A program made the translations under genes and the position numbers. Below are positions 20,113-36,931 of a stretch of DNA of 64,000 nucleotides, piece after piece. Numbering within the stretch: the stretch's first letter is position 1; every line of letters begins with the position of its first letter. The notes beneath the pieces are model-generated. The model saw nothing but the letters and a program-made list of their open reading frames with translations, was not told where the DNA came from and searched no databases. The stretch lies in NCBI GenBank assembly GCA_963749155.1, contig CAVVLO010000002.1, positions 672,001-736,000 on the forward strand, read 5' to 3'. The DNA is from an uncultured Armatimonadia bacterium. GTDB lineage: Bacteria; Armatimonadota; Zipacnadia; CAVVLO01.

Positions 20113-20162
20113 CTCAGGCGCAAAACCTGGCGATGCGGTCCGGCCTTCCCGGTCGGGCCGCA

Positions 20163-20191
20163 TTGACGTTTGGCGATGCGCGGTATACTAT
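20163..20191 (+). promoter_or_regulatory. Sigma70 promoter of rpoZ-dnaJ-prmA
   Basis: TTGACG-N17-TACTAT. Confidence 0.6.
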
Positions 20192-20231
20192 TTGCGGGCA
20201 ATAACGCTGACTGGGATTTGAGGGAGAACTG

Positions 20232-20441: not shown

Positions 20442-20456
20442 CCACCCCTGCCGCAT

Positions 20457-21593
20457 ATGAGAACGACTCGGGACTACTATGAGATACTGGGAGTGGCCCG
20501 GGACGCGACCACCGAGGACTTGAAGCGCGCCTTCCGGAAGAAGGCGATGGAATGCCACCCCGACCGCAATCAGGATGATCCTGAGGCAGAAGGGCGCTTC
20601 AAGGAACTCAACCTCGCCTACCAGGTGCTTTCCGATACCGACAAGCGCGCTCGCTATGACCAATTTGGCGAAGCGGGCGTGTCCGGCAATGGCACAGGGG
20701 GAGGTTTTGATCCAAACGGTGGCGGCTTCGACTTCGGCTTCGGCGATCTGGGCGATGTGTTTGAGGCCTTCTTCGGCGGTCAGCAGCGCACCAGCGGTCC
20801 CCAGCCTGGCGCCTCGCTTCAGTATGAAGTCGAGCTGTCTCTCGAAGAAAGCCGCTTCGGGTGCGAGCGCACCCTGGCCTTCTCGCGCCTTGGGCGCTGC
20901 GCGGTCTGCGAGGGCACAGGTTCGGAAAGCAAATCCGGCCCTGCCGTCTGCACGATGTGCGCGGGCACTGGACGCGTGCGGCAGACTCAAAACACCTTCT
21001 TCGGCCAGTTCAACACCGCGCGGCCTTGTCCCCGATGTCGCGGCACCGGTCGCACAGTGACCGATCCCTGCCCCTCCTGTGAGGGCAGCGGGCTCAAGAG
21101 CGAGGACATCAAGCTCAAGCTCGATATTCCCGAAGGCTCGCTCGAAGGGCAGAAGCTGCGCCTGCGCGGCGAGGGCGATGCGGGGGAACAGGGGATGCCA
21201 GCCGGCGATTTGTTCGTCCTGTTGCGCTTCAAACCCCATGAGCTGTTCGAGCGACATAATCTGGACCTGCATATGGAGCTACCCCTCTCGGCTCTCGATG
21301 CAATGCTTGGCACCGAGCTGCAGGTGCCGACACTTGAAGGCGAAGAGAAGCTGGACATCCGCGCCGGGACCCAGCCGGCCGATGTGTTTCGCATCAAGCA
21401 GAAGGGCCTGTATGACGGCTCGCGCAATCGCAAGGGTGACCTTTACATTCATGCGAAAGTGGTCATCCCTCGCAAGCTGAGTAAAGAAGACCGCCAGCAG
21501 CTCGAAGCCTTGCGCGACAAGCTCGAAGGGGACCATGAGCCTGAGAAGGCCTCCTTCCTCGAGCGGATCAAGCAGATGATGGGAGGGCGCTGA
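20457..21593 (+). CDS. dnaJ: Chaperone DnaJ (class A)
   Basis: J domain with HPD, G/F-rich region, four CxxCxGxG repeats. Confidence 0.97.
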   Translation: MRTTRDYYEILGVARDATTEDLKRAFRKKAMECHPDRNQDDPEAEGRFKELNLAYQVLSDTDKRARYDQFGEAGVSGNGTGGGFDPNGGGFDFGFGDLGDVFEAFFGGQQRTSGPQPGASLQYEVELSLEESRFGCERTLAFSRLGRCAVCEGTGSESKSGPAVCTMCAGTGRVRQTQNTFFGQFNTARPCPRCRGTGRTVTDPCPSCEGSGLKSEDIKLKLDIPEGSLEGQKLRLRGEGDAGEQGMPAGDLFVLLRFKPHELFERHNLDLHMELPLSALDAMLGTELQVPTLEGEEKLDIRAGTQPADVFRIKQKGLYDGSRNRKGDLYIHAKVVIPRKLSKEDRQQLEALRDKLEGDHEPEKASFLERIKQMMGGR

Positions 21594-21594
21594 G

Positions 21595-22476
21595 GTGGAT
21601 ACACGCTCCTGGGCGAAGCTTTCACTTATTGGGCCAGCCGCCGCGCTTGAACCGCTGGAAGGGTTGCTCGCCAAATATGATATGAACGCAACCCAGGTTA
21701 TCTTTGAGGACGACCGGGTGCGCCTGGATTGTTATCTATACACCGATGAACTGAACTCCGATTTGGCAATTGCTATCGGAGGAGACCTGAACTACTTCCC
21801 CACACTTTTCCCCGAACTGCCTGCGGAATATGAACTGAAGCAGGAAGAGCTGGGCCCCCAGCCTGACTGGGCGCTGGCCTGGCGCGATTTCTACGAGCCT
21901 ATCGAAATTGGCAGGCTTCAGGTAGTGCCAAGCTGGCTGGCGGACGAGACACCGGAAATCGAAGGCGGCACCAGGTTGATACTCGATCCGGGACGCGCTT
22001 TCGGCACTGGTCGGCATGAGAGCACCAAACTGCTGCTCGGACTGCTCCAGGAGCAAGACCTGGCAGGCAAGCGCGTGCTGGACTTGGGCACTGGGTCGGC
22101 TATTCTGGCGCTGGCCGCGGCCAGGCTGGGCGCAGGAAAAATTGTCGGCACCGAGATTGATCCCGAAGCCGTTGAAGTGGCTGAAGAGAATGTAAAGCAG
22201 TCCGGCCTTGGCGAACAGATAACTCTACTGACTGGAAGCCTCTTCGAAGGCGTCGAAGGGCGCTTCGACCTCATCCTCTGCAATATCCTCGCCCCGGTAG
22301 TAATTGAAGCCGCAGGGCAAGCGGCGCGCTACCTGGCGCCAGGAGGATTGTTCTTCGGCTCGGGTTTTTACGAGGCGGACTCAGCCCCTGTCATCGAAGC
22401 GCTGCAGGCCTCCGGCTTCGAGGTGAAGGTTGTCACCCTGGGCGAGTGGGCGGCTATCTCGGCAAAACTCGATTGA
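21595..22476 (+). CDS. prmA: Ribosomal protein L11 methyltransferase
   Basis: DPGRAFGTGRHEST, VLDLGTGSAIL, CNILA; follows dnaJ. Confidence 0.93.
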   Translation: MDTRSWAKLSLIGPAAALEPLEGLLAKYDMNATQVIFEDDRVRLDCYLYTDELNSDLAIAIGGDLNYFPTLFPELPAEYELKQEELGPQPDWALAWRDFYEPIEIGRLQVVPSWLADETPEIEGGTRLILDPGRAFGTGRHESTKLLLGLLQEQDLAGKRVLDLGTGSAILALAAARLGAGKIVGTEIDPEAVEVAEENVKQSGLGEQITLLTGSLFEGVEGRFDLILCNILAPVVIEAAGQAARYLAPGGLFFGSGFYEADSAPVIEALQASGFEVKVVTLGEWAAISAKLD

Positions 22477-22503
22477 TCCCTTCCCAAAAGACCTCCTCTC
22501 CTG

Positions 22504-22530
22504 GCAGGAGGACTCCGACTTCGGGCGAAA
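22504..22530 (+). promoter_or_regulatory. SigH-like promoter motif upstream of the BMC operon
   Basis: GCAGGA-N17-GAAA, 57 bp before ATG 22588. Confidence 0.55.
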
Positions 22531-22587
22531 GACTGTCTTCCTGAAGCATTAAGGGTGCAAAGACTGGTTTGGAAGAAGGAGCCTCCA

Positions 22588-23382
22588 ATGAAACTGGCTT
22601 GTCAGGAAGGATTGGTACCTGGTACCAGCCTCAAGGAAAAGTGCGAAAATCTGGCAGCCTGGGGCTACAAGGGCATCGAGTTTGGCGGGGGAGGCCTGGC
22701 CGAGCGAGTGGGCGAAGTCAATGCCGCCTGCGATGCGGCAGGCATCAGAGCTTGTTCTATCTGCTCTGGTTATCCAGGGGTGCTGCTTTCGGACCGGGCC
22801 GATGAGCGTAAACTGGCAGTCGATGGCATAAAGGCTTTGTTTAAGGTAGCCGCCGATATCGGCGCGGTGGGAGTCATCGTCGTGCCGCTCTTCGGAGGGC
22901 CAAAACTGCCTGACCTCTCTCCCTTGATGGGCGTACTCGAAGCCGAAACTCAGCTTCTAATCAAGCTATGCGAGCAGCTAGCCCCGACAGCCGAGGATGC
23001 CGGTGTCTGCCTGCTGCTGGAGCCTCTCAACCGGTATGAGACCCATTTCATCAACAGGCTCGAGCAGGCCGTGGCTATCTGCGAAGCCGTGCCAAGCCCT
23101 GGTATACAACTTATGGCAGACTTCTTCCATATGAGCGTCGAAGAACGCGACATCCCCGCGGCTATCGAAGGCGCAGGGGCTTTTGTAAAGCATGTGCATC
23201 TGGCCGAAAGCACCAGGCTCTTCCCCAATCCGGAATACGGCCACACTGATTTCAAGGCGGGATTTGCGGCTTTAAAGGAAGCCGGCTTCGAAAACTATAT
23301 GGCAATCGAATGCATACCCACTGGCAAGGACCGCGCGACCGAACTCAAGGCCACTGCGGCTTATCTGAATTCCTGCATATAA
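22588..23382 (+). CDS. Sugar (phosphate) isomerase/epimerase, AP-endonuclease-2 TIM barrel, YcjR-like
   Basis: LEPLNRYE, ADFFHM, HVHLAE, AIEC metal-binding motifs. Confidence 0.9.
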   Translation: MKLACQEGLVPGTSLKEKCENLAAWGYKGIEFGGGGLAERVGEVNAACDAAGIRACSICSGYPGVLLSDRADERKLAVDGIKALFKVAADIGAVGVIVVPLFGGPKLPDLSPLMGVLEAETQLLIKLCEQLAPTAEDAGVCLLLEPLNRYETHFINRLEQAVAICEAVPSPGIQLMADFFHMSVEERDIPAAIEGAGAFVKHVHLAESTRLFPNPEYGHTDFKAGFAALKEAGFENYMAIECIPTGKDRATELKATAAYLNSCI

Positions 23383-23400
23383 GCAAGGGAGGCAGGCGTT

Positions 23401-24372
23401 ATGACAGTGCGTGTTGGTTTTGTGGGATGCGGAGGGATGAACTCCGCACATATGCGGTCGCTGGCTCGGCTGGAGTCGGCCCAGCTTGTGGCCTTCTCCG
23501 ACCCGGACCTGGCCAGGGCGCAGTCCAAAGCTGAGGAGTTCGACGGCAGAGCTTACGAAAGCCATGAGGCGATGCTGGAAGCTGAAGCCCTGGACGCTAT
23601 CTATGTTGCGGTGCCGCCCTTCGCTCACACGACTGCCGAGTTGATGGCGGCCGAAAAAGGCTGCGCGGTCTTCGTCGAGAAGCCTATCGCAACTACCCTG
23701 GAGAAGGCGCTCGAGATAAACGAAGGGCTCAAAAAGGCCAGCGTCGTCACCCAGGTCGGCTACCACTGGCGCTGGTTCGACACTACCGAGCAGGCGGCTG
23801 CTCTGCTTCCCAAAGACCAGGTGCATATGGCGCTCGGTTACTGGAATGGCGGCTTCCCCGGGGTTGCCTGGTGGAGGGTACTTGCCGAGTCGGGCGGGCA
23901 GTTCGTCGAGCAGACGACTCACATCTTTGACCTGGCGCGCTATCTGGTCGGCGAAGTAAAACAGGTAGGCGCCTTCGCGACCTTGCGCGCAATGAAAGAC
24001 ACGCCCAATATGGACGTGCCCGATGTCGGTGTGGCAACGCTGGAGTTCGAATCGGGCGCCATCGGCACGGTAATGAACACTTGCGCACTTATGCAAGGCC
24101 ATAAAGTGGGCCTGGCGCTGGTTGGACACGATTTGGTGGTCGAGCACAACGCCGGCCAGTTGCTGGTCATCAAACCCGATGGCAGGGAAGAAGTCACGCC
24201 GACAGTAAATCCCGTCGAGCGCGAAGATGAAGTCTTCATCCAGGCTGTAAAGACTGGAGATACGAGCGCCATCCGCTCGAGCTATGAGGACGGCGTGAAG
24301 AGCCTGGCTGTCTCACTGGCCGTGAATGAAGCCTGGCAGAAGGGCAAAGTCGTCGAGGTACCCCGTATCTAG
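23401..24372 (+). CDS. Gfo/Idh/MocA family oxidoreductase
   Basis: VGCGG, VPPFAH, VEKP, SGGQFVEQTTHIFD. Confidence 0.92.
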   Translation: MTVRVGFVGCGGMNSAHMRSLARLESAQLVAFSDPDLARAQSKAEEFDGRAYESHEAMLEAEALDAIYVAVPPFAHTTAELMAAEKGCAVFVEKPIATTLEKALEINEGLKKASVVTQVGYHWRWFDTTEQAAALLPKDQVHMALGYWNGGFPGVAWWRVLAESGGQFVEQTTHIFDLARYLVGEVKQVGAFATLRAMKDTPNMDVPDVGVATLEFESGAIGTVMNTCALMQGHKVGLALVGHDLVVEHNAGQLLVIKPDGREEVTPTVNPVEREDEVFIQAVKTGDTSAIRSSYEDGVKSLAVSLAVNEAWQKGKVVEVPRI

Positions 24373-24420
24373 TTACCGAGCGACAATATCGCTTGTATAA
24401 ACCCACTGGAGGAATTGCGA

Positions 24421-25398
24421 ATGGCACTAAGAGTAGGGATGATTGGTTGCGGCGGGATCGCCGAGGCGCACTTGAACACCTTGAAAGGACTGGAAGATGC
24501 AAACCTGGTGGCCTTCCAGGATATCGACGGCGCGAAGGCTGCGCGCTTTGCCGAGCTTGCTGGCCAGGGCAACGTCTACAGCGACTACCGTGAGATGTAC
24601 GACAAGGAAGCCCTCGACGCCGTCTGGGTCTGCGTGCCTCCCTTTGCCCACGAAGATCAGGAGCTTATCGCCTGCGAGAAGGGCATCCCCTTCTTCTGCG
24701 AAAAGCCCGTTGCGCTTACAATGGGCAAGGCGCGCGAGGTAGAAGCGGCCGTCGAGAAGGCAGGGCTTATCACCGGCGCAGGTTATCTGGTGCGTTATAT
24801 GGACACCGCGGCCAAGGTGAAAGAGCTTATCGAAGGCAAGCAAATCGATATGTTCGAGGGCCATTTCTCCGGAGGCTTCCCCGGCGTGTACTGGTGGCGG
24901 CGGATGGAATTATCCGGCGGTCAGTTTGTCGAGCAGACCACTCACATAGTCGATATCTTGCGGTATTTCCTGGGTGATGTAGAGCGCGTTTCGGCCTTTA
25001 TGGCCCAGCGCGATATGGAAGATATTGAGAATATCAATATCCCCACCGTAGGCACCGTGGGGCTTGAGCTCAAATCCGGCGCAGTTGGCGCAGTTCATAA
25101 CACCTGCATCGTATCGCAGGGCTATAAAGTAGGCGCTACCCTCCTTGCGCGCGACCTGGTGGTCGAGTATACTTACACGCGAGTGACTTGGCGCACCCCG
25201 GATGCAAGCGGAGAGTTCACCTGTGACTTCGACGGGATGGTGCGAGAGGACGCTGCTTTCCTCAAAGCCATCCAGACTGGTGACGCTTCGCTAGTCAAGT
25301 CTACATACTCGGACGCCGTTAAGACACTGGCGGTAACCCTGGCAGCCAATGCTTCCGCCGAGAGCAAGCAGGTAGTATCGGTGGACAGCTTCGGCTGA
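24421..25398 (+). CDS. Gfo/Idh/MocA family oxidoreductase (paralogue of upstream gene)
   Basis: IGCGGIA, VPPFAH, CEKP, SGGQFVEQTTHIVD. Confidence 0.92.
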   Translation: MALRVGMIGCGGIAEAHLNTLKGLEDANLVAFQDIDGAKAARFAELAGQGNVYSDYREMYDKEALDAVWVCVPPFAHEDQELIACEKGIPFFCEKPVALTMGKAREVEAAVEKAGLITGAGYLVRYMDTAAKVKELIEGKQIDMFEGHFSGGFPGVYWWRRMELSGGQFVEQTTHIVDILRYFLGDVERVSAFMAQRDMEDIENINIPTVGTVGLELKSGAVGAVHNTCIVSQGYKVGATLLARDLVVEYTYTRVTWRTPDASGEFTCDFDGMVREDAAFLKAIQTGDASLVKSTYSDAVKTLAVTLAANASAESKQVVSVDSFG

Positions 25399-25418
25399 CC
25401 TGTCTGGAAGGAACACAA

Positions 25419-26243
25419 ATGAGTCGCGCATGTTCGCTTGTTGACGAGAAACAGCTGCGGGCGCAGATATGTGAACTCGGTCATCGGCTCTGGCAGCGTG
25501 AATATGTGGCCAGTAATGACGGCAATATCTCCGTCATTATGAGCCCGGACACGGTGCTTTGCACCCCCACTGGCGTCAGCAAGGGGTTTATGACGCCCGA
25601 TATGCTCATCAAGATAGACCGTCAGGGCAAAAAGCTTGATGGCTATCTCAATCCCTCCTCCGAGATAAAGATGCACCTGAGGGTTTTTGATGAGCGACCT
25701 GACATATGCGCCGTCATCCACGCACATCCACCGACCGCAACAGGTTTCGCCGTGGCCGGGGTACCACTTACCAATATGGTGCTGCCCGAGATCATCATCA
25801 CGCTGAAGGCCATCCCGCTTGCCAAATATGGGACCCCTTCGACGCCGGAGATCCCGGATGCGCTGATGCCCTTCCTGCAGGAATATGATGCTTTCCTGCT
25901 GGAGAACCACGGGGCGCTCACTCTCGGCAGAGACCTGCTTGATGCCTATCACAAGATGGAGCAGGTAGAAGGCTTTGCGCGCATCTCGCTGACTGCGCGT
26001 TTGCTCGGTTCAGAGCGCGCGCTGCCCGACCAGGATGTGAACAGGTTGCTTGAGATGCGCCGGGACTGGGGTCTGGAAGAGCGGTCCGTGTGCGCAGCCT
26101 GCGGTGCATGTGATGCAGAAGCAAGCGTAGGCGATCTGAAGAAAGACCAGAAGCCCTCGGCTTCTCTTACCGACCCGGAGCTTCACAGTATTGTCCGGGC
26201 AGTTACTGAAGAGATTCTCAGCGAGTTGAACAAGTCTAAATAA
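25419..26243 (+). CDS. Class II aldolase (FucA/RhaD-like) with C-terminal encapsulation peptide
   Basis: DGNIS, TPTG, PSSEIKMH, HAHP, ENHG; C-terminal CAACGAC then helix ELHSIVRAVTEEILSEL. Confidence 0.93.
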   Translation: MSRACSLVDEKQLRAQICELGHRLWQREYVASNDGNISVIMSPDTVLCTPTGVSKGFMTPDMLIKIDRQGKKLDGYLNPSSEIKMHLRVFDERPDICAVIHAHPPTATGFAVAGVPLTNMVLPEIIITLKAIPLAKYGTPSTPEIPDALMPFLQEYDAFLLENHGALTLGRDLLDAYHKMEQVEGFARISLTARLLGSERALPDQDVNRLLEMRRDWGLEERSVCAACGACDAEASVGDLKKDQKPSASLTDPELHSIVRAVTEEILSELNKSK

Positions 26244-26264
26244 GCAAGACTAAGGTGAGTCAGG

Positions 26265-26645
26265 ATGGCAGGAATGCAAGAAGCTCTGGGGTTGCTTGAG
26301 ACTTTCGGTCTGGTGGCCGGCTTAGAGGGACTTGACGCGATGTTGAAGGCGGCCAAGGTGCGCTTGATCGCCTGCGAGTTCCCTGGCAGCGGTCGCGTAA
26401 CCATGATGGTAGTCGGTGATGTAGGAGCAGTTCAAGCGGCCCTTGACGCCGGCGCGGCCTCGGCAAAAAAGGTCAACGAAGTCGTTAGCTCGCATGTCAT
26501 ACCGCGCCCTGACGAGTTCACCGGCGACCTGGTAGCAATGTCCCGGCTGTACATACCCGACGAAGAGCCCTCGGGCGAAGACGCCGATGTTTCGCCTTCA
26601 CCCAAAGCTCCAGGTCGGCGCGGTGGCGGCGGCAGAAGCAAATAA
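26265..26645 (+). CDS. BMC hexamer shell protein (BMC-H) with C-terminal extension
   Basis: [13 protein letters not shown]...DAMLKAAKV...GDVGAVQAA...HVIPRP. Confidence 0.95.
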
Positions 26646-26705
26646 TCAAAGTCGATTTCCCAGTTCGCGTCCAGCGGGCGGGAGTAATTCAAGGAGGTAC
26701 CGTCA

Positions 26706-26981
26706 ATGAACGGTGAAGCATTGGGTCTCATCGAAACTCGCGGTCTGGTTGGCGCCATTGAGGCTGCTGACGCTATGGTGAAGGCAGCTAACGTTACCCT
26801 CATCGGCAAGCAGCAGATTGGCGGCGGACTTGTCTCCGTGATGGTAAGAGGCGACGTAGGCGCCGTGAAAGCTGCTGTCGACGCGGGCGCTACCGCGGCC
26901 AAGAAAGTCGGCGAGCTGCTCTCCGTGCACGTTATTCCACGGCCACACGAGGAACTCAAGAAGATCCTGCCCGAGGGGTAA
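26706..26981 (+). CDS. BMC hexamer shell protein (PduA/EutM-like)
   Basis: [27 protein letters not shown]...IGGG...GDVGAVKAA...HVIPRPH; AAGGAGG RBS. Confidence 0.97.
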
Positions 26982-27013
26982 GTCTCTCTCAGGCTTGCGT
27001 CAGACTAGTTGAC

Positions 27014-27044
27014 AGGCCAGGCGGCTCGCCGAGCTGACTGGCCT
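27014..27044 (+). other. Intergenic hairpin after the major shell gene (possible mRNA stabiliser or partial terminator)
   Basis: AGGCCAG / CTGGCCT outer stem with inner GGCTCG-CGAGCT pairing; no U tract. Confidence 0.45.
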
Positions 27045-27081
27045 TCACTGGTCACCTCCTCGTAAGGGGCGTGGACCTGCG

Positions 27082-27747
27082 GTGCAAGAGCAAGAGCTAG
27101 TTCAGCTAATTGCCGAGCGCGTCCTCCAGCGGCTGAAGGAAAGAGACATCGAGGTTCATCAGGTGTCCCGTGACCGGATCCCGGTGGGCGTTTCTGTGCG
27201 GCACCTGCATATCACCAAAGAGGACTTCGCAGCCCTGTTTGGCGAAGGCGCAGAGCTCAAAGTGCGCAACTGGCTGTATCAGGAAGGCGAGTTCGCCTCT
27301 GATCAGACGGTCACCCTAGTGACCGCCCGGCGGTCGCTGCCAGGTGTGCGCATCCTGGGGCCCTTCCGCCCGAAAACTCAGGTCGAGGTCTGCAGGACCG
27401 ATGCCGTTATGCTCGGAGTAAATCCTCCTGTCAGAGTCTCGGTCAACGAGGCAGGCGGCGGTTCGCGAATCACTTTGGTGGGGCCTGAAGGCTCCATCGA
27501 TGTGGATGATGGTCTTGTGGTCGCGCGCAGGCATGTCCACTGCAATCCGACGGAAGCCGCCGCGCTGGGCATCAAAGAAGGCGACAGGCTGGATCTGGAA
27601 ATACTCTCCGACAGGCCTGTTGTACTGCGAGATGTTGTGGTCCGCACTGGCGAAAAACTCAAACTCCAGTTTCATGTGGATACTGACGAGGCGAATGCCG
27701 CCGATGTCAGATGCGATATGTTCGCCCGTATCGCCGAGGTGAGGTAA
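27082..27747 (+). CDS. pduL: Phosphate propanoyl/acyltransferase PduL with N-terminal encapsulation peptide
   Basis: GVSVRHLH, RILGPFR..TQVE, ARRHVHC, FHVDTDEANA. Confidence 0.95.
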   Translation: MQEQELVQLIAERVLQRLKERDIEVHQVSRDRIPVGVSVRHLHITKEDFAALFGEGAELKVRNWLYQEGEFASDQTVTLVTARRSLPGVRILGPFRPKTQVEVCRTDAVMLGVNPPVRVSVNEAGGGSRITLVGPEGSIDVDDGLVVARRHVHCNPTEAAALGIKEGDRLDLEILSDRPVVLRDVVVRTGEKLKLQFHVDTDEANAADVRCDMFARIAEVR

Positions 27748-27750
27748 CAA

Positions 27751-28047
27751 ATGAAACTCGGCAAGATTGTGGGTACTGTCGTGGCGACCCAGAAAAATGA
27801 GGCGCTCATTGGCGCCAAGTTGCTGGTCGTGCAAGACTTGAAACTCGATATTGCCCCTGCAAGTGGGTCGGTCGTCTGCGTGGACAGCGTTGGAGCAGGG
27901 ATCGGAGATGTTGTGCTTTATGTCTCCGGCAGCTCTGCCCGGCTTACCGAGGTCAGCAAGGACAGGCCGGTGGATGCCACTGTGATCGCAATCGTTGATA
28001 CAGTCGAGGTCGAGGGCCAGGTGGTCTTCTCCAAAGGGGCTTCCTGA
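27751..28047 (+). CDS. BMC vertex pentamer (EutN/CcmL family)
   Basis: MKLGKIVGTVVATQK...DSVGAGIGD...GSSAR...DATVIAIVD. Confidence 0.95.
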   Translation: MKLGKIVGTVVATQKNEALIGAKLLVVQDLKLDIAPASGSVVCVDSVGAGIGDVVLYVSGSSARLTEVSKDRPVDATVIAIVDTVEVEGQVVFSKGAS

Positions 28048-28328
28048 TGAAGCTGGCCAGAGTCGTGGGCAAGGTCGTTGCGACCATCAAAGACCCCGCG
28101 CTCGAGGGCCTTCCCCTGCTTATTATCCAGCCCCTGGACGAACACCTGACTGATCAGGGCGACTTCTTTGTTGCGATTGACCCTATCGGTACCCGCCAGG
28201 GCGATATTGTCTACTGGGAAAGCAGTCGCGAAGCGCCAGCCGCCGTACCGAGCGAGCCACCGGTTTCCGCCGCCATTGTTGGCCTGGTGGACGCCATCAA
28301 CCTTACCGTGCCAACCGAGGTTAAATGA
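28047..28328 (+). CDS. BMC vertex pentamer (EutN/CcmL family)
   Basis: MKLARVVGKVVATIKD...VAIDPIG...AAIVGLVD. Confidence 0.93.
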   Translation: MKLARVVGKVVATIKDPALEGLPLLIIQPLDEHLTDQGDFFVAIDPIGTRQGDIVYWESSREAPAAVPSEPPVSAAIVGLVDAINLTVPTEVK

Positions 28329-28600
28329 GACTGGCCAAGGTCATTGGCAATGTCGTCTCGACACACAAATTGCCCGTCTTCGAGGGGCGCAAGCTGATGC
28401 TTGTGAAACCTTGCAGGCCTGACTACTCGCTGACCGAAGAGGCCGTCGTAGCTATTGATATGGCAGGCGCGGGGCCAGGCGAGATCGTCGTACTGGCAGA
28501 AGAAGGCCGCGCTGTGGCCGACTTGTTAAACAACGGAAAGCGCGCCCCAGCCAGGTCGGTTATTATTGGGATCGTCGATAAAGTCCAGGATTCAGAATAA
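28325..28600 (+). CDS. BMC vertex pentamer (EutN/CcmL family)
   Basis: MRLAKVIGNVVSTHK...VAIDMAGAGPGE...SVIIGIVD. Confidence 0.93.
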   Translation: MRLAKVIGNVVSTHKLPVFEGRKLMLVKPCRPDYSLTEEAVVAIDMAGAGPGEIVVLAEEGRAVADLLNNGKRAPARSVIIGIVDKVQDSE

Positions 28601-29367
28601 TGCCACTCGATGAAGCTGTCGTTCAACAGATTGTAGAGGCCGTAATTGCCCAGCTCCAGGCCGCAGCCGGGACGCCCAAACGGCGCAAGCGCTCTACTGG
28701 CCCGACCGCCCTGCTGGTGGTCGACACCACTGGGCCTGCGCTCGAGGCTGCGCTGCCTGCCGTCAACACTCTGTTAAACGATACTTTGGCCTCCGCCGTG
28801 CTGGTGCCTTCGGGACGGCTTTCCGAGGCCCAGATAACTGACCTGAAGACCAAACTTGGACTCGATGAAGTCTGGGGGCCTGAGGCAGGTTGCCTGCGTT
28901 CGAAAGTGGCAGAGGTTTCAATCGTTGTTGGGGTCTCGCTTTCGGCCGCGCTCCTTGCCAGAACCGCACTGCTGCTTGTGGATGACCCGGCAGCGGAAGC
29001 TTTGCTGGAAGGCGTCTTCGCCGGCAAGCCAGTAATCGCAGCACTGGATGGCTGTGATCCGGAGGCCGCGCCCGTGCAGCTTCCCGCAAGACTGTTCAGG
29101 CGCTTCCAGGAGTACATCGCGGATTTGGATAGCTACGGGCTGAAGCTTTGCGCCGCCGCCGACCTGTCGAAGCAGGTGGTGGCAGCCTTGACCGGTGTGG
29201 CAACGCCGGGAGCGGCTTCAACTCCCGACCTGCTGACCGCCGAGGACGTGCGGCGTATCGCCGATGGCGGGGCCAAGCAGCTCGACATAAGCTCGCGTAC
29301 TATCGTCACTCCTCTCGCGCAGGATCTGGCCGATGAGCGAGGACTAAAGATAAAGGTTTCTGACTAG
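28600..29367 (+). CDS. BMC-associated flavoprotein-like (PduM/EutQ-N related) protein with encapsulation peptide
   Basis: N-terminal EAVVQQIVEAVIAQL; GKPVIAA..GCDP; C-terminal LLTAEDV...IVTPLAQD motif common in BMC loci. Confidence 0.7.
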   Translation: MPLDEAVVQQIVEAVIAQLQAAAGTPKRRKRSTGPTALLVVDTTGPALEAALPAVNTLLNDTLASAVLVPSGRLSEAQITDLKTKLGLDEVWGPEAGCLRSKVAEVSIVVGVSLSAALLARTALLLVDDPAAEALLEGVFAGKPVIAALDGCDPEAAPVQLPARLFRRFQEYIADLDSYGLKLCAAADLSKQVVAALTGVATPGAASTPDLLTAEDVRRIADGGAKQLDISSRTIVTPLAQDLADERGLKIKVSD

Positions 29368-29394
29368 CCAGTTACCCGCAAGGGGGATTATCCA

Positions 29395-30903
29395 ATGGAA
29401 CTTGATCGTAGCGCACTTGAAAGTATCGTAGCCCAGGTAGTGGAGAATCTGCAGAAAGGCGGCGCGCCCGCCGCGGCGGCGCCTAAAGCTGCGGCTCCCA
29501 AAGCCGAGGCTCCGAAGGCTGACGCGCCAAAGGCTGATGCGCCTGCACAAGCAGCTTCCAAACCCGCCAGCAAAGTGCCCAATGACCTTAAGACGGGCGA
29601 TGGGGTCTTCACGGGAATCGACGAAGCCATCGCGGCAGCCAAGGCAGCCCTTGCCGAGTATGCAAAACTTGGCTTGTCCGACCGTAAGGTTATCGTTGCC
29701 GCTCTTCGTAAAGCCGCTCTTGACAGCGCTCACGAGATGGCCGACCTTGCCTGGCGCGAGTCTGCAATGGGCCGTTATGAGGACAAGGTGCTGAAGAACC
29801 AGATGGCCGCGAAAGGCTCTCCCGGCGTCGAATCGCTGAAGCCTTATGAGACCTTCGTCGGCGATCTGGGCACTCATATGGTCTACAACGGGCCCTGGGG
29901 CGTAATTGGCGCCATCACGCCAGTGACCAACCCGACTTCGACCATAATCAATAACGCCATCATCATGCTGGCCGCAGGCAATACTGTGGTCTTCGGACCG
30001 CATCCCCAGGCTATGGTCTGCTCGATAAAGCAACTCCAGATACTAAGCCGGGCGGTGCGCGAGGCAGGCGGGCCTGACAACCTGATGACCTGCGTAGTCG
30101 AGCCGACGATCCGCACGGCCGCCGAGATCTTCAAGTCCGACGACATCGCGATGATCTGCGCGACTGGCGGTCCGGGAGTCGTGCGCGCCGCTATGGAAAA
30201 TGGCAAGCGCGTCGTTGGCGCGGGCGCGGGCAATCCGCCCGTCATCGTGGACGAGACGGCCGACATCAAGCGCGCCGCCTGGTCCATTGTGGAAGGCGCC
30301 AAGTTCGACAACGACCTGCCGTGCGTGGGCGAGAAAGAGATCTTCGTCGTCGATTCGGTCGCCGATGCGCTCATCCGCGAACTGAAGAACCAGGGCGCTT
30401 TCCATGTGCCCGAATCCAGGGTGGACGCGCTCACCCCAATTTGTATCAAGGACGGTAAAGCTAACCGCCCGATGGTCGGCCAGAATGCCGAGATCATCCT
30501 CAAAGCCGCTGGCGTTGACGTCTCGGGCGACCCGCCAATTGGCATCTTCGAGACCGACTTCGAGAACGATGTGGTGCAGGAAGAACAGCTTATGCCCATC
30601 GTGCCAATCGTACGTTGCCGCAACTTCGAGCAGGCACTGGAATACTCTCGCCTGGCCGAACACGGATATACGCACACCGCGCTGATGCACTCGACCAATA
30701 TCGCGCGCATCACGGAGTTCACCCGCGTGATGCAATGTACGATCACCATAATCAACGGCCCCTCGTATGCTTATACAGGCACCGAGGGCGAAGGTTATGT
30801 AACCTTGACGGTTGGCACCAAGACAGGCGATGGCGTCAGTAATCCGTTGACTTTCACGCGGCGCAGACACACGTCCTTCTCGCGCACGCTCAATCTCATC
30901 TAG
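29395..30903 (+). CDS. CoA-acylating aldehyde dehydrogenase (PduP/EutE family)
   Basis: N-terminal encapsulation helix, xAPKA linker, GAITPVTNP, ATGGPGVV, AGAGNPP, catalytic DNDLPCVGEK, EQLMP. Confidence 0.95.
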   Translation: MELDRSALESIVAQVVENLQKGGAPAAAAPKAAAPKAEAPKADAPKADAPAQAASKPASKVPNDLKTGDGVFTGIDEAIAAAKAALAEYAKLGLSDRKVIVAALRKAALDSAHEMADLAWRESAMGRYEDKVLKNQMAAKGSPGVESLKPYETFVGDLGTHMVYNGPWGVIGAITPVTNPTSTIINNAIIMLAAGNTVVFGPHPQAMVCSIKQLQILSRAVREAGGPDNLMTCVVEPTIRTAAEIFKSDDIAMICATGGPGVVRAAMENGKRVVGAGAGNPPVIVDETADIKRAAWSIVEGAKFDNDLPCVGEKEIFVVDSVADALIRELKNQGAFHVPESRVDALTPICIKDGKANRPMVGQNAEIILKAAGVDVSGDPPIGIFETDFENDVVQEEQLMPIVPIVRCRNFEQALEYSRLAEHGYTHTALMHSTNIARITEFTRVMQCTITIINGPSYAYTGTEGEGYVTLTVGTKTGDGVSNPLTFTRRRHTSFSRTLNLI

Positions 30904-30915
30904 AAGTGAGTCAAA

Positions 30916-32232
30916 ATGGCAGGTAGCCAGTTTCTGGATAAAGTCCGCGAGGCTGGGGTGGTCGGCGCCGGTGGCGCTGGCTTCCCAACCCATGTAAAAC
31001 TCGATGCCAAGGTGGATTGGCTGATAGCCAACGCTGCCGAGTGCGAACCGCTGCTGCACGCCGATGCGGCCGTACTCGAACACGAAGGCGACAAGGTCAT
31101 CCGCGGGATGATCGCCGCCGCCGAGCAGGTGGGCGCGACCCGCATCACCATCGCAATCAAGCGCAAGCACACCGAGCTCATCGAGGCGCTTCAGGCCCAG
31201 GTCAAAGGCACGCCGGTTGAGCTCTGCGAACTCAACGATACCTATCCTGCTGGCGATGAGCATGTGATGGTCTACGAAGTCACTGGCCGCATCGTCCCCG
31301 AGGGGGGCATCCCCCTTCAGGCAGGCTGCGTGGTCAGCAACGTCGAGACCTACCTCAATGTCGCTGGCGCGCTCGATGATGAGCCGGTTACCATGAAATA
31401 TGTCACTGTAAATGGCGCAGTGGCAGAACCGCAGACCTTCATCGCGCCGATTGGCATAAGTCTGGAAGCACTTATCCGCCAGGCTGGCGGGCCCACGATT
31501 AACGACTATGTCGTCGTCACTGGCGGCTGTATGATGGGCCGCATCGGCTCTGTAGATGAATCACTCACCAAGACAGTCAACGCGGTACTCGTCTTCCCGC
31601 CGGACCATGAGGTCGTCTCGAAGACGAAGCTCACGATGACAGCCGCCGAGACTCAGGGCAGCGCCGCCTGTTGCCAGTGCTGGGATTGCACCAAGGTGTG
31701 TCCGCGCTATCTGCTGGGCCACAACCTGCAACCGCACCTTACGATGCGCGCGATGGCTTATGGCAAGCCGGAAAACTCCGATGCTATCACTATGGCGTGG
31801 CTTTGCTGCGAATGTGGCACCTGTGAGATGTATTGTCCTATCCGCCTGTCGCCCCGGCGCGTGTATCAGGGCATCAAAGCAATGCTCAAAGAGGCCGGCG
31901 TGAAGAATCCCCACACCAACGCGGACCTGCAGGCGCGCGAGACCAGGCCTTACCGCCTGGTGCCCTCAAACAGACTGCGCGCCAGGCTCAATGTAGAGCG
32001 CTACAATGTGGACGCCCCGCTGGTCGAGACGCCGCTCAGTGCCGCCGAGGTGGAGATCCCCCTCAGGATGCAGGTCGGCGCGCCTTCGCAGCCGGTCGTC
32101 GCGGTTGGCGATGTGGTGAAGGCAGGCCAGCTTATCGCCTGCATCCCCGAAGGCGCCCTGGGCGCCAATATCCACGCCAGCATCAGCGGCAAGGTCACCG
32201 CGGTGGACGGCTATATTGCCATCGAGGCTTAA
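30916..32232 (+). CDS. pduS: PduS/RnfC-like NADH-dependent FMN/Fe-S oxidoreductase
   Basis: GVVGAGGAGFPT, NAAECEP, YPAGDE, CCQCWDCTKVCP, CCECGTCEMYCP, C-terminal GANIHASISG. Confidence 0.9.
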   Translation: MAGSQFLDKVREAGVVGAGGAGFPTHVKLDAKVDWLIANAAECEPLLHADAAVLEHEGDKVIRGMIAAAEQVGATRITIAIKRKHTELIEALQAQVKGTPVELCELNDTYPAGDEHVMVYEVTGRIVPEGGIPLQAGCVVSNVETYLNVAGALDDEPVTMKYVTVNGAVAEPQTFIAPIGISLEALIRQAGGPTINDYVVVTGGCMMGRIGSVDESLTKTVNAVLVFPPDHEVVSKTKLTMTAAETQGSAACCQCWDCTKVCPRYLLGHNLQPHLTMRAMAYGKPENSDAITMAWLCCECGTCEMYCPIRLSPRRVYQGIKAMLKEAGVKNPHTNADLQARETRPYRLVPSNRLRARLNVERYNVDAPLVETPLSAAEVEIPLRMQVGAPSQPVVAVGDVVKAGQLIACIPEGALGANIHASISGKVTAVDGYIAIEA

Positions 32233-32246
32233 GTGAGGACTGCTAT

Positions 32247-32795
32247 ATGAACCGCGCTATCGGTATGATCGAATATTTCAGCATCGCTGCGGGCATCAAA
32301 GCTACTGACGAGATGCTCGATGCGGCCGCTGTGGAGTTGCTTTTCTCGATGCCCGTCTGTCCGGGCAAGTATTTCGTGATGTGCGCGGGCGAGGTCTCGG
32401 CTGTCCAGACCGCCGTAAACGTCGCTCGCAATGTATCGCCCGAATTGACCACCGACTGGGTGCTGCTGCCCAATGTGGACGAGTCCATCTTCTCCGCTCT
32501 GACCGGTACAGTGCCTGTCGACGATATCAAAGCCCTGGGCGTTATCGAGACCTTCACTGGCCCCGCTGCGGTTATGGCCGCCGATATCGTCGTGAAAGCT
32601 GCCGATATCAAGCTTATCGAGATCCGCCTGTGCAAGGGGCTGGGCGGCAAGGCCTACACGCTCTATACAGGCGATGTGTCGGCCTGTGAATCCGCGACTC
32701 GTGTTGCGGTGAACCAGCTCCAGAGCCAGTCGCTTATCGTCTCTTACGCGGTCATCCCCTCGCCCAACGAGGAACTTATCCGCGCCTTGCTCTGA
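32247..32795 (+). CDS. pduT: Tandem-domain BMC shell protein (PduT-like BMC-T)
   Basis: AIGMIEYFSIAAG, VCPGKY (pore Cys), ALGVIETF, GLGGKA, GDVSA. Confidence 0.9.
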   Translation: MNRAIGMIEYFSIAAGIKATDEMLDAAAVELLFSMPVCPGKYFVMCAGEVSAVQTAVNVARNVSPELTTDWVLLPNVDESIFSALTGTVPVDDIKALGVIETFTGPAAVMAADIVVKAADIKLIEIRLCKGLGGKAYTLYTGDVSACESATRVAVNQLQSQSLIVSYAVIPSPNEELIRALL

Positions 32796-32823
32796 CCCCC
32801 TTCCCCAGCGGCAGGAGGCCCTG

Positions 32824-34029
32824 ATGAAGTTACTCGTGCTCAATAGTGGTGGCTCGTCGGTCAAGTACAAGCTGTATGATATGAGCGATGAGAGCGTCCT
32901 CCTGGCGGGGGGCGTGGAGCGCCTTAACGAGCCGTCCGGCCTGGTCAAGCATAGGTGGGGCGCGGGGCAGGTTCACGAAGAAGAGATGCCCTCTCCAAGC
33001 CATCAGAAGGCCATCCTCCGTGCCCTTGAGCTGGTCGTGGATCCTGGCCTTGGCGGACTGGCGTCCCTCTCCGAAGTCGAAGCCGTTGGCCATCGCGTTG
33101 TGCACGCAGGCGAGCACTACACTGGCTCGGTGCTCATCACCCCTGACGTCGTCCGCGCGCTTGAGGAGTGCTCCGACCTCGCGCCGCTGCATAACCCGCC
33201 CAACCTGGCGGGTATCCGCGCTGCCCAGGCCGCGATGCCCCAGGTGCCGCATGTTGCCGTCTTCGACAACGCCCTGCACCACACGGTGAAGGATTACGCT
33301 TATACCTATGCCTTGCCCTATGAATACTTCGAAAAATATCGCATCCGCAGGTATGGTTTCCACGGGGTGGCTTTCCGCAGCGCGACCGCCCAGGCCGCCG
33401 AGTTGCTTGAGAAACCCCTCTCAGAGCTGCGTCTGGTCACGCTGATGCTGGGCAGCGGCTGCACGGCCAATGCGATGAAGCACGGCGCCTCTTGCGAGGT
33501 CAGCACGGGCTTCACCCCGCTGGAAGGGCTCATCCAGTCGACGCGTACGGGTGATATGGACCCTGCTGTGCTGCTCTATATAATGGAAAAAGAAGGCAAG
33601 ACCCCCGCCGAGATGAACGCCCTGCTCAACAAGCAGAGCGGCTGGTATGGCATCTCGGGCGTCAGTCAGGATATGCGCGAGGTGACGCGCAAAGCTACCG
33701 AAGGTGATTACCGCGCCAACCTGGCTATCCAGGCTTTCTGCCATCGAGCCAAGAAATACGTGGGCGCTTACGCGGCGGCGATGGGCGGGATTGACGCTCT
33801 GGTCTTCGCCGGGGGCGTGGGCGAGAACGAATGCGGGCTACGCGCCGAGATCTGCGGTGGCCTGGAGTTCCTCGGATTGTACCTCGATTCGCGCAAGAAC
33901 CGCGATCACAAGGGCAAGCCAGGGGTAGTTTCCACCGACGCCTCGCCCGCGAGCATCGTGGTTGTGGCCTGCAACGAAGAATTGGTAATCGCGCGCGACA
34001 CCGCTGAGGTCGCCGCCAGGGAGGGTTAA
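32824..34029 (+). CDS. Acetate/propionate kinase family protein (divergent)
   Basis: LNSGGSS.K, GHRVVH, APLHNP, RYGFHG, FTPLEG, TRTGD, GGVGEN, NEELVIA. Confidence 0.93.
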   Translation: MKLLVLNSGGSSVKYKLYDMSDESVLLAGGVERLNEPSGLVKHRWGAGQVHEEEMPSPSHQKAILRALELVVDPGLGGLASLSEVEAVGHRVVHAGEHYTGSVLITPDVVRALEECSDLAPLHNPPNLAGIRAAQAAMPQVPHVAVFDNALHHTVKDYAYTYALPYEYFEKYRIRRYGFHGVAFRSATAQAAELLEKPLSELRLVTLMLGSGCTANAMKHGASCEVSTGFTPLEGLIQSTRTGDMDPAVLLYIMEKEGKTPAEMNALLNKQSGWYGISGVSQDMREVTRKATEGDYRANLAIQAFCHRAKKYVGAYAAAMGGIDALVFAGGVGENECGLRAEICGGLEFLGLYLDSRKNRDHKGKPGVVSTDASPASIVVVACNEELVIARDTAEVAAREG

Positions 34030-34034
34030 GCAAT

Positions 34035-34412
34035 ATGCGCAAGCCTGAAGGGGCCAGAGTCTGGCTGATCGGAGACGCCTATCTGCCCGCCGAGATCAAC
34101 CCCGAGCTGCCAGGGCACGAGTCCACCTGCGTGCTCAACACCTCGGAGAAGCCCGCCAACGTCGTGCTGACGTTCTACTTCGAGGATCGCGATCCCATCC
34201 GCGACGTGAAGGTGCCGGTCGGCCCAGAGCGCACGCTGCACATCAGGCTGGACAAGCCTGAGATGCTCGGTGGGATGACCTTGCCGCGCCTGGTGCCTTT
34301 CGCCATCAGGGTGGAGAGCGATATCCCGATCGTGGTGCAACATTCGCGCCTGGACGTCACACAGCCCAATCTGTCGGTCTCGACCAGCATCGCCTATCCG
34401 CTGGAAGACTAA
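34035..34412 (+). CDS. ASRT (Anabaena sensory rhodopsin transducer) family protein
   Basis: G.RVWLI.DAYLP, HESTCVLN, FYFEDRDP, RTLHIR, ESDIPIVVQHSRLD. Confidence 0.88.
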   Translation: MRKPEGARVWLIGDAYLPAEINPELPGHESTCVLNTSEKPANVVLTFYFEDRDPIRDVKVPVGPERTLHIRLDKPEMLGGMTLPRLVPFAIRVESDIPIVVQHSRLDVTQPNLSVSTSIAYPLED

Positions 34413-34433
34413 CCCGACTCCGTAGCTCCTCTG

Positions 34434-34469
34434 AAGCCCCGGCGCCGCAAGGTGGCGGGGCTTTGTTTT
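34434..34469 (+). terminator. Intrinsic terminator closing the BMC operon
   Basis: AAGCCCC-G(G)CGCC-GCAA-GGTGGC-GGGGCTT followed by TGTTTT. Confidence 0.75.
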
Positions 34470-34479
34470 GGGCGGTTGG

Positions 34480-36931
34480 CAGACTAACCTCACCAGGTGG
34501 GACCCGATGACTTCTGGTAGTACTCGACCGGTTTCTGGGGCCTGGGCCGCCACCAGGTGGGACTGCAGGCAGCCAAGGCGTTCCAGCAGCACGGGTATAG
34601 CACCAGCGCTAGCAGTGGTCGCCCTGGCGTGCCGTGCTGATGCCTCGGAGCGACATTGCAATGCGATCTTGCTGTCGCCCTGCGGATCCCACATTACCCT
34701 GTGCGCGAAGGCTCCAGCAGGGCGATTGGCGGGCAGTACAACTCCTTGCCTCACCATCGACGCGAGCCCTCGCGCGCTACCTCAGCCGTAGGCGGCGCGG
34801 CGCTTCGTTCGGCGTTGCATTAGGTTTCCATCCTTCAGCCATGCGTTCGAGGCCCTCGGCGAGGGCAGGGCCTCTGCCTCCAGGAGCTCAGTCACGCTCC
34901 TGTCAGCGCGAGTCCGCACCAGACGGCCTGGAGCGTCGAGGCAGGAAGGTCCCACTGCCAAACCTGGCCAGTCAGTAGCGGCTGGCATAGAGAGCATCGG
35001 CCAGGTCTTGTGGCGGCGGGGTGCGCGTGGAATGCCAGGGCTCGAGCCAGGGCACATCGCCGTAGCTGGCAAGCAAGACTTCGGCCTGCTGACGCACGCG
35101 CTGCCAGTCAGAGCGCAGCAAGGCGTATCGCACCTCGTTGCCAAGCTCTCCCGCGGCCTGCCGGGCCTCTGGCGCCACCGGGTAATCTGGCGCGCGCAAT
35201 ACTTCGGCCGGTCCCTGCTGGGGGCGGCAGCAAGTGCTTCGGGCAGCATCGTATCAACTGGGGAGACCTGGGGCAGCGTGACCGGTTCAACGGTCACACC
35301 TTGGTAGCCAGTCGGCGCCTTTCGTGAGGGTCTGGCAGTGGTGGCAACACTGGGCTGCTTGTCTTCCTCCAGCCCCGGTACGTACTTGCGATATTCGACC
35401 GGAAAGAGTTCCAGGCGCTGCTCGTCGGGGAACCAGGCCCAGTCCAGCCCAAAGAGGGGCATAAAATCCTGCGCGGCGACGAGAAGGCGTCACGCGGTGA
35501 GGAGGCATAAATCTGCGCGCACGAGAGCGCGCCTTCGCGCAGCACTGGCGCGCTCAGCGTCACCGGCTTGCCCGCGACCTCGGCCTGGATGCTGCCGACG
35601 GTCAGCAGCACTTTCGTGTTAGGCGTCCGGGTGGACTCGGTCTTGTCGCTCCCCTGCTCCGGAGGCGCCAGTCGCATCACCTTTAGCTCTACAGGGCCCT
35701 GCTCCCATCCGGAAATGAGACGCGCCGAAGCCCCCAGTATGAGGGTCGCCTCGACCGGTGCGTAGATAAAACCATCTCTCGCGATGGCCGCGCAGACAGG
35801 CTGGTTACCCAGACAGAGTAGAGGCTGCGCGAGTCCGGCTGCCGCTAAGGCTCTTCGGGCATCGAAGTAGTTAAGGGTAGCTGTTGCGGCAGGCTGCCTG
35901 TACCACTCCTGAAGTGAGTCCTCAGAACAATGAAACACAGGCGACATACTTCGAGCAAACTGCGCATCCCGCTCTCCTTCCAGCAACTGGACATACGGGA
36001 CGCACTCGGCGGGCTGACCGTTGACCAGCCCACGGATAGCCTGGGCTTCAAGGGCGGCTTCCTCAAGGGTCGGGGTGGACAGGTAGTCCACTTGGGTTCC
36101 TTTTTCGGGATAACCGAGTTTCTCGTTTGCAGCCCGGCGCCCCTCAGGTGTGCGCAGGTCGAAGCCGTCGAGTTCTGAGGCGCGAGGCTTATACCAACTC
36201 AACACCTTGAAGTCCGAGCCCAGGCGCTCTGCTGCCCAGCCCAGACGTTCTTCGGCCAGCTTCAGCAGTTCCACATCGCCTGCCACCAGTTGCAGCTTCG
36301 CCCACTGCAGGCAGTGGGCTTCCTCGGCGAAGTGGTCCACCATCGCGGGGGAGGGATTGCCTCCGGCTCCGGCAAGCCCCGGCTTGCCCAGCTTGCGCAA
36401 GGCCAGGTCGGTCAGCAGCCAGGGCGTTGACGCTGGCCATGCGAAGTACGAGGCCCACGGCCCCCACTCGGGGCCCAGTAGCGGAGCAGTCGCCTCAAGC
36501 AGCCCGCGCCAGTCCTCGGTCAGGAAGCAGAGCCGGGCAAGCAGAGAACGCGCGCTGACTGGGTAGATGTAGGGCTTCTGCTTGCCTTCATCTTGCTGAC
36601 CGCCTTGGAGTAGCAACTTGCGGAGCGCCTCAACACTGGTATAGGCGGCATCCACCTCTTCTTGCGGCACTTCTGTATTGCCGTAGTAGGCAACCAGCGC
36701 CATCACGTCGCCGTACATCGCCTGCAAATCCTCGATTTGGGCCTGCAGAAGGACCCAGTCGGCGGGTGTTTTTGCTTCGGGCAGTTGCTTGTGGAGGTCA
36801 GCAAGGGCTTCAGCCTGGGCGCGTAGCTCGGGGTCACTGGGCAGCAGGTAGCCATAGGGAACCGGTTCAGCACAGGCGGTAGCGAGCAGAAAGGCAACCA
36901 ATAGCGCGAGGCAGAGTGTTGCGCGGGTCAT
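34480..36931 (-). CDS. Secreted hypothetical protein with a copper-amine-oxidase N-terminal-like domain; several frameshifts, 3' end uncertain (may be more than one gene)
   Basis: Signal peptide MTRATLCLALLVAFLLATACA; FIYAPVE...VLLTVGSIQAEVAGKPVTLSAPV; continuation in ORFs 34782-35462 and 34972-35199. Confidence 0.5.

Follow-up and report, generated by a model that had tools for sequence, protein, structure and literature searches.

Gene content and boundaries of the operon

The window analyzed here, a stretch of 64,000 nucleotides from an uncultured Armatimonadia bacterium (assembly GCA_963749155.1, contig CAVVLO010000002.1, positions 672,001–736,000 of the forward strand), carries at 22588–34412 an operon for a bacterial microcompartment (BMC), in which 16 intact open reading frames (ORFs), all on the + strand with intergenic gaps of −4 to 100 nt, encode an epimerase, two Gfo/Idh/MocA oxidoreductases (hereafter Gfo1 and Gfo2), an aldolase, shell proteins and metabolosome enzymes. 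A first-pass annotation of the window had counted 15 genes, its own list also summing to 16; every gene that it listed is present, intact and on the + strand, and its labels, apart from the flavoprotein described below, agree with the Pfam and NCBIfam assignments. The features are as follows, with Pfam matches in parentheses.

22588–23382, +, TIM-barrel keto-sugar epimerase/isomerase (PF01261), YcjR/IolO/ketose-3-epimerase-like
23401–24372, +, Gfo/Idh/MocA oxidoreductase 1 (PF01408), best match IolG at 126 bits, cut-off 355
24415–25398, +, Gfo/Idh/MocA oxidoreductase 2 (PF01408), 47% identical to Gfo1 and of the same subfamily
25419–26243, +, class II (FucA-like) aldolase (PF00596), the signature enzyme, with a CxxCxxC linker and a C-terminal encapsulation-peptide-like helix
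26265–26645, +, BMC-H (PF00936) with a C-terminal low-complexity extension of about 40 aa
26706–26981, +, BMC-H, standard (PF00936)
26990–27075, +, intergenic RNA hairpin after the BMC-H genes (z −2.4; 3 of 200 shuffles as stable)
27082–27747, +, PduL phosphotransacylase (PF06130) with an N-terminal encapsulation-peptide-like helix
27751–28047, +, BMC-P 1 (PF03319)
28047–28328, +, BMC-P 2 (PF03319)
28325–28600, +, BMC-P 3 (PF03319)
28600–29367, +, flavoprotein-like protein (eut_hyp/PvmL type) with an N-terminal encapsulation-peptide-like helix and a C-terminal EutQ-like module
29395–30903, +, CoA-acylating aldehyde dehydrogenase (AldDH) of the PduP/EutE type (PF00171) with an N-terminal encapsulation-peptide-like helix
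30916–32232, +, PduS-type flavin/Fe–S oxidoreductase (PF01512/RnfC-type)
32247–32795, +, PduT-type BMC-T (tandem PF00936), pore cysteine C38 in PVCPGKY
32824–34029, +, acetate/propionate-family kinase (PF00871), with two more paralogues elsewhere in the genome
34035–34412, +, ASRT-family small protein (PF07100), unlinked to BMC loci among the relatives
34432–34469, +, intrinsic terminator-like hairpin (34432–34465) and T run, after the ASRT gene

By Pfam and NCBIfam, no dehydratase, glycyl radical enzyme, ammonia-lyase, alcohol or lactate dehydrogenase, sugar kinase, or regulator occurs among the 16 genes, as had been noted, and neither a second BMC locus nor a second close AldDH was found in the 4.17-Mb assembly. 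The claim of a terminator is supported by the hairpin (−31.2 kcal/mol; z −3.8; none of 200 shuffles equally stable) and its T run. The promoter motif claimed at 22504 was not recovered; a sigma-70 scan of 20000–37000 gave two sites against 4.5 expected by chance, neither of them in the 111-nt gap between prmA and the epimerase gene. No + strand terminator was found in this gap, which folds no better than shuffled sequence, and transcription may read through into the operon from the co-directional upstream dnaJ–prmA. Among RNA reads, one run held 6% of the words, with 7 contig pieces of 35–279 nt, two of which bridge gfo2–aldolase and aldolase–H1; these pieces do not establish transcription.

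Shell, aldolase and core enzymes

The aldolase retains the catalytic Glu and the three metal-binding His residues when aligned to FucA (32% identity), and its nearest named relatives are the aldolases of Moorella and CEB3 (53–56% identity), which have the same CxxCxxC linker. Its C-terminal amphipathic helix is missing from the three aligned homologues that come from shell-less loci; C-terminal peptides on BMC aldolases are already described in PMC4594438. The AldDH scores 551 bits with PRK15398 (cut-off, 403), and C310, E397, and H427 are invariant in the alignment, where it is 41–48% identical to the other AldDHs and 67% identical to one homologue; at its N-terminus, a helix is followed by a Pro/Ala linker. 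On inspection of the sequences, targeting-like helices were thus read on the aldolase, AldDH, PduL, and flavoprotein-like protein, and none was seen on the epimerase, either Gfo enzyme, PduS, the kinase, or ASRT. At E ≤ 1e-35, PF01512 is matched in the genome by the PduS gene alone, so that no NuoF-type subunit was found there.

The label "flavoprotein" held only through relatives of the protein: it has no Pfam match of its own and reaches 42 bits with TIGR02536, under the cut-off, and PF02441 is matched by 4 of 15 aligned homologues; "flavoprotein-like" is therefore used here. Its single-sequence structure prediction (pLDDT 47) was uninformative. It is an ordinary component, as are PduS and PduT; its family is equivalent to PvmL as described for the Planctomycete/Verrucomicrobia (PVM) type. 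Altogether, the gene content bears out the proposal of a metabolosome built on aldolase, AldDH, PduL, and kinase.

Conservation of the operon genes in relatives

Conservation was analyzed in 401 genomes of the phylum, 29 of which gave AldDH matches. The 24 BMC-bearing relatives considered here comprise 23 with a PduP-type match and G080, included for its shell locus; three AdhE-like cases and G203 were left out. The presence of shell genes was confirmed for 22 of these 24 (all but G104 and G116). Of 20 loci from one set of relatives, 4 were annotated gene by gene, and the Gfo adjacency counts are lower bounds, being drawn from the 150 listed among 225 Gfo matches.

The order aldolase–H–H–PduL–P–P–P–flavoprotein–AldDH is complete in 7 relatives and lacks PduL alone in 2, and PduS with BMC-T lies inside the locus in 5 and forms a satellite pair in 7. 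Of the 401 genomes, 165 have a member of the Gfo subfamily, 75 have the epimerase, and 87 have the aldolase. A Gfo gene directly precedes the aldolase in at least 6 of the 24 BMC relatives and stands one gene away in at least 3 (the intervening gene is shown as DeoR in 2); among 62 aldolase-positive genomes that lack a BMC AldDH, at least 13 likewise have Gfo adjacent to the aldolase. Epimerase and Gfo are adjacent in 7 of the 9 epimerase-bearing BMC relatives, as compared with 4 of 65 other epimerase-positive genomes, with three families on each side. The pair lies inside the BMC locus in one relative only. In G127, which belongs to a second class, the epimerase (55%), Gfo (54%), aldolase, H, H, and PduL follow one another, with AldDH–kinase (57%) and PduS–PduT alongside, on three short contigs in all. 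Being linked to both the aldolase and the epimerase, Gfo is the hub of the front end, and the epimerase is optional. The Gfo–aldolase adjacency and the recurrence in G127 uphold the view that epimerase and Gfo are functionally linked to the metabolosome and are not bystanders.

These counts also bear on another role for Gfo, as the missing aldehyde reductase, that is, the NADH sink, of a fucose/rhamnose metabolosome that the epimerase, an independent partner, came along with. Gfo–aldolase is indeed the commoner link (9 of the 24 BMC relatives, besides the BMC-less genomes above), and the reductase slot is filled by other folds in described types: lactate/malate dehydrogenase in PVM and zinc dehydrogenase in GRM5 (PMC4207490), and hydroxyacid dehydrogenase in the ACI type (PMC8217296). 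However, neither Gfo has an encapsulation-like extension, all the nearest solved Gfo structures are of enzymes for sugars, cyclitols, or glycosides, one family's Gfo–aldolase is already accompanied by an aldo/keto reductase, and PduS/PduT offers another electron exit. We consider such a reductase role unlikely.

The last gene, which had been included in the set, behaves differently. ASRT occurs in 5 of the 23 BMC relatives tested and in none of the 23 on a contig with BMC genes; it was rejected as a conserved component and is a local appendage. Links of ASRT to sugar operons have been described, with no mention of microcompartments in the parts of that report consulted (PMC2739507).

Several further arrangements were seen in these searches. 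A GTDB scan with the AldDH gave 8 loci in total. The Actinomycetota loci L060–L062 contain four BMC-P, PduS–PduT, aldolase, BMC-H, PduL, and AldDH (DeoR being shown in L060), a MIC4-like arrangement that has no front end. The aldolase BMC locus of one family has a radical SAM gene (PF04055; L035:5790-6806, L036:13588-14598) between PduS and BMC-T, and no glycyl radical enzyme was seen in the vicinity. In another (L034:8235-10785, L038:7427-10055, L041:8911-11653), a BMC-type AldDH stands outside the shell locus, directly after 3-dehydroquinate synthase. One genus has a 238-aa gene between PduL and the pentamers (L049:7010-7723, L051:7445-8158, L052:12543-13256), with a weak CorA match in two of the three copies. 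A shell-less cluster of one family (L023, L025, L027, L029, L030) reads Gfo–aldolase–(AGE-family epimerase)–metallo-beta-lactamase-fold–aldo/keto reductase; this family has RhaA in 3 of 3 and a rhamnulokinase-like gene in 0 of 11. Epimerases of the same kind as that in the operon follow a DUF2961 gene and/or precede an FGGY kinase in L138, L149, L151, and L154, all of one family. DUF4349 recurs beside the aldolase and also, once each, within a BMC locus and close to an epimerase (L018:8480-9487, L028:9045-10016, L046:5723-6712, L168:962-1939).

The epimerase and Gfo enzymes

The epimerase is the best match to YcjR in its genome (29% identity), with E145, D178, H181, H204, R210, and E241, the metal and catalytic residues, invariant between the two; its best NCBIfam match is IolO (119 bits; cut-off, 300). 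Two ideas about the Gfo enzymes did not hold up. A division of gfo1 and gfo2 into separate subfamilies, one linked to the epimerase and the other to the aldolase, is not supported, since homologues from either context resemble the two genes to about the same degree; orthology to YcjS (30% identity) was rejected, as other genes of the genome match YcjS better. A metagenome scan with gfo1 returned 28 loci, and none of the other operon genes was present in the 12 closest, which were mapped. On plasmids, Gfo homologues occur in 70 records (41–43% identity in the 25 listed) and epimerase homologues in 1, with no substrate indicated; two of the three records examined pair a Gfo with a sugar isomerase/epimerase.

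Neither the hidden Markov model (HMM) table nor the type-description text of the BMC catalogue of Sutter 2021 (PMC8217296) contains PF01261, PF01408, or PF07100, a negative that covers text and tables, so that ancillary genes drawn only in locus diagrams would escape it. A literature search found no paper describing Gfo enzymes in BMC loci. The epimerase and Gfo pair is the new, uncatalogued part of the operon, and it is conserved in relatives.

With such enzymes, the front end could belong to a distinct cyclitol, keto-aldonate, or 3-keto-glycoside pathway (IolG/IolO- or YcjQRS-like), the sugar being neither fucose nor rhamnose. The best family matches point that way, the epimerase's being IolO and that of each Gfo enzyme IolG, as does a 3-keto-D-glucoside 4-epimerase, which is the epimerase's best match among characterised structures; G386 has Zn-dehydrogenase–epimerase–Gfo in the order of ycjQRS, and G005 has the BMC and the pair without rhamnose isomerase, rhamnulokinase-like gene, or canonical FucI. 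Yet the IolO and IolG matches are all far under cut-off, the Zn-dehydrogenase of G386 does not resemble YcjQ (29% over 126 aa), YcjS is better matched by other genes of the operon's own genome, and rhamnose isomerase is present in 18 of the 24 BMC relatives. A separate pathway of this kind appears quite improbable.

Genomic evidence on the substrate

The genome itself encodes a rhamnose-isomerase-type gene in two pieces, a rhamnulokinase-like gene (499 bits; cut-off, 528), and a FucU-like gene (68%), together with GH29 (strong matches, 6 of 11) and 8 GH78-domain matches; RhaD, the RhaD-SDR fusion, and canonical FucI were searched for in it and not found, and FucA is best matched there by the aldolase of the operon. 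Sugar genes in two pieces in this genome (G000), possibly through assembly frameshifts, are the rhamnose-isomerase-type, FucI-like, and YcjQ-like genes and an FGGY kinase (C3:85016-86150; C6:26633-28229; C2:778761-779790; C2:243484 region). At C1:436200-439400 (L073), a class II aldolase-family gene, a RuBisCO-like protein, and a PfkB kinase stand in a row, none of them over a curated NCBIfam cut-off, as a putative further sugar pathway.

Among relatives, the rhamnulokinase-like gene was found in 22 of the 24 with a BMC and in 33 of 55 others, and the RhaD-SDR fusion in 1 of 25 BMC-bearing genomes versus 12 of 33 kinase-positive genomes that lack a BMC AldDH (for a single family, 1 of 6 with a BMC versus 4 of 4 without). 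A second rhamnose isomerase family was searched in 14 of the 24, including all those without the first. Six BMC relatives have neither of the two rhamnose isomerase families nor canonical FucI, and all six carry the epimerase–Gfo pair; this is consistent with an organelle for rhamnose/fucose that the sugar enters by another route. Around the rhamnulokinase-like gene in three genomes, no neighbour is named as an isomerase. The genome content favours, in the first place, a predicted route from rhamnose or fucose to lactaldehyde. The "different or rare sugar" suggested by the first-pass annotation is less probable, rhamnose/fucose being favoured by the genome's own genes.

Two other substrates can be set against these genes. 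If the epimerase were a ketose 3-epimerase feeding pentoses to the aldolase (D-xylulose to D-ribulose to D-ribulose-1-phosphate), the organelle would convert glycolaldehyde to glycolate with gain of ATP. The epimerase keeps a metal site of the ketose-3-epimerase type, in another family it stands between a DUF2961 gene and an FGGY kinase that comes after it, and tagatose 3-epimerase, FucK, and FucA perform such a route in engineered E. coli (PMC6995148). This leaves the tight epimerase–Gfo pairing unexplained, however; ribulokinase, AraD, and xylulokinase-like genes are present for ordinary pentose use, and none of the 5 complete FGGY proteins scored is over the cut-off for fuculokinase, which makes pentose feeding rather improbable. 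Alternatively, the aldolase would act in the dihydroxyacetone phosphate (DHAP) shunt, with 5-deoxy- or methylthio-ribulose-1-phosphate as its substrate and acetaldehyde or methylthioacetaldehyde as the product. The genome does encode MtnA, but there is no MtnK match in it and no mtn gene in the operon or among the annotated neighbours in the relatives' loci; the shunt is very improbable.

Proposed pathway and its weighing

Given these data, we put the probability at roughly one half that the operon encodes a MIC4/MUF2-type aldolase metabolosome in which L-rhamnulose- or L-fuculose-1-phosphate is cleaved within the shell, the epimerase and Gfo enzymes serving as a cytosolic ketose feeder. In this pathway, Gfo would oxidize a hydroxyl group of the sugar or alditol and the epimerase would invert the carbon beside the new ketone, a route replacing or supplementing the usual isomerases. 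A rhamnulokinase-like enzyme encoded outside the operon would then form the ketose 1-phosphate, and the aldolase would split this 6-deoxy-ketohexose 1-phosphate into DHAP, which would enter glycolysis, and lactaldehyde. The latter would be converted by AldDH to lactyl-CoA with formation of NADH, by PduL to lactyl-phosphate with recycling of CoA, and by the kinase to lactate and ATP. PduS/PduT would serve for electron export. As no alcohol dehydrogenase is present in the operon, PduS would presumably oxidize the NADH, with the electrons leaving via the Fe–S pore of PduT. The conversion of lactaldehyde via lactyl-CoA to lactate follows the PVM model as described in PMC6620236.

Several observations weigh against this pathway. 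The epimerase match is missing in 15 of the 24 BMC relatives, the epimerase–Gfo pair also occurs in 4 genomes without a BMC AldDH or close aldolase, and Gfo–aldolase without epimerase is found in at least 12 genomes lacking a BMC AldDH. None of the enzymes has a close characterised relative (FucA, 32%; YcjR, 29%; YcjS, 30%), and four more genes of the class II aldolase family are present in the genome. Absence of the RhaD-SDR fusion is not specific, since 21 of the 33 kinase-positive genomes without a BMC also lack it; G005 and G041 have the BMC and no rhamnulokinase-like match; and the six isomerase-less relatives represent two lineages, four of them with divergent FucI-like matches. In addition, kin genomes are non-independent samples, and co-transcription of the first three genes is a prediction.

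A bolder proposal is that the operon represents a distinct Armatimonadota subtype of the aldolase metabolosome, with sugar entry by an isomerase-independent Gfo/epimerase route and possibly a sugar other than fucose and rhamnose; we regard this as tentative and somewhat doubtful. If it were true, the operon would be the first complete gene set, and so permit the first substrate assignment, for MIC4, MUF2, and MUF3, and entry through Gfo/epimerase would add a new route to the breakdown of deoxy sugars in a phylum that degrades polysaccharides. The relatives have the parts dispersed among satellite loci, whereas the present operon unites them with the predicted feeder enzymes.

Comparison with known systems

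MIC4, MUF2, and MUF3 are catalogued organelles without a known substrate, for which the literature search returned the catalogue, its preprint, and a survey only; it found no paper pairing Armatimonadota with bacterial microcompartments. Compared by type description (PMC8217296), the predicted core composition matches MIC4 and the gene order matches the Armatimonadetes locus catalogued as MUF2. The core with PduS/PduT, which the first-pass annotation took for an unusual set, is accordingly already described in composition and order.

With MIC4, the operon shares AldDH, phosphotransacylase, PF00596 aldolase, and PF00871 acetate kinase in the main locus, the BMC-P triplet, PduS beside a PduT-type BMC-T with the pore cysteine, and the N-terminal peptide of AldDH; the MIC4 description is without epimerase, Gfo, and ASRT, and Armatimonadota are not among the phyla that it gives. 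In the catalogue, the AldDH of MIC4 branches with those of MUF2 and MUF3. With MUF2, it shares AldDH and phosphotransacylase in the main locus, the C-terminal peptide of the aldolase, the BMC-P triplet, and two or more BMC-H. The catalogue places the AldDH of MUF2 closest to PVM and its BMC-P in the purple, grey, and orange clades, and the locus tags of the Armatimonadetes MUF2 locus fit the order H–(H)–(PduL)–P–P–P with a satellite BMC-T. Acetate kinase, PduS, and the front end do not figure in the MUF2 description, whereas all are in one operon here; conversely, the Cys-rich protein between BMC-H and BMC-T of MUF2 (optional, in 5 of 13 loci) has no corresponding ORF here. MUF3 (Moorella, Mahella, Peptococcaceae CEB3) has AldDH, phosphotransacylase, kinase, aldolase, and PduS/PduT in common, but is described from Clostridia only and with one BMC-P and three BMC-H, in contrast to the three BMC-P and two BMC-H of the present operon.

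The PVM type, as described in PMC4207490 and PMC8217296, shares the class II aldolase, AldDH, phosphotransacylase, kinase, two BMC-H, three BMC-P, and flavoprotein (PvmL). It differs in its lactate/malate dehydrogenase (PvmO) and DeoR regulator, which are absent from the operon, in the PduS/PduT present here, and in its restriction to Planctomycetes/Verrucomicrobia, the operon being from Armatimonadota, which is also the commonest taxon in the Atlas cluster nearest to its epimerase. For PVM, the organelle is needed for growth on fucose/rhamnose. In one related family, a DeoR gene precedes the aldolase in 5 loci, unlike in the studied operon. From the PVM-like type, whose AldDH, phosphotransacylase, and BMC-P are given as closest to GRM5, the operon departs in one defining feature that was tested. 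The front end resembles E. coli YcjQRS in the succession of a TIM-barrel keto-sugar epimerase and a Gfo dehydrogenase and in the metal residues common to the epimerases, but at 29–30% identity, with Gfo enzymes that are not YcjS orthologues and with no BMC link in E. coli.

The possibility that the locus would match a catalogued type with its ancillary genes included was thus borne out for the core, in MIC4/MUF2, and not for the epimerase and Gfo enzymes, which are uncatalogued in the tables. Substrate and feeder chemistry are predictions. Collectively, the locus is an intact operon that combines the core of a catalogued organelle type without a known substrate with an uncatalogued, conserved feeder and a local ASRT gene.

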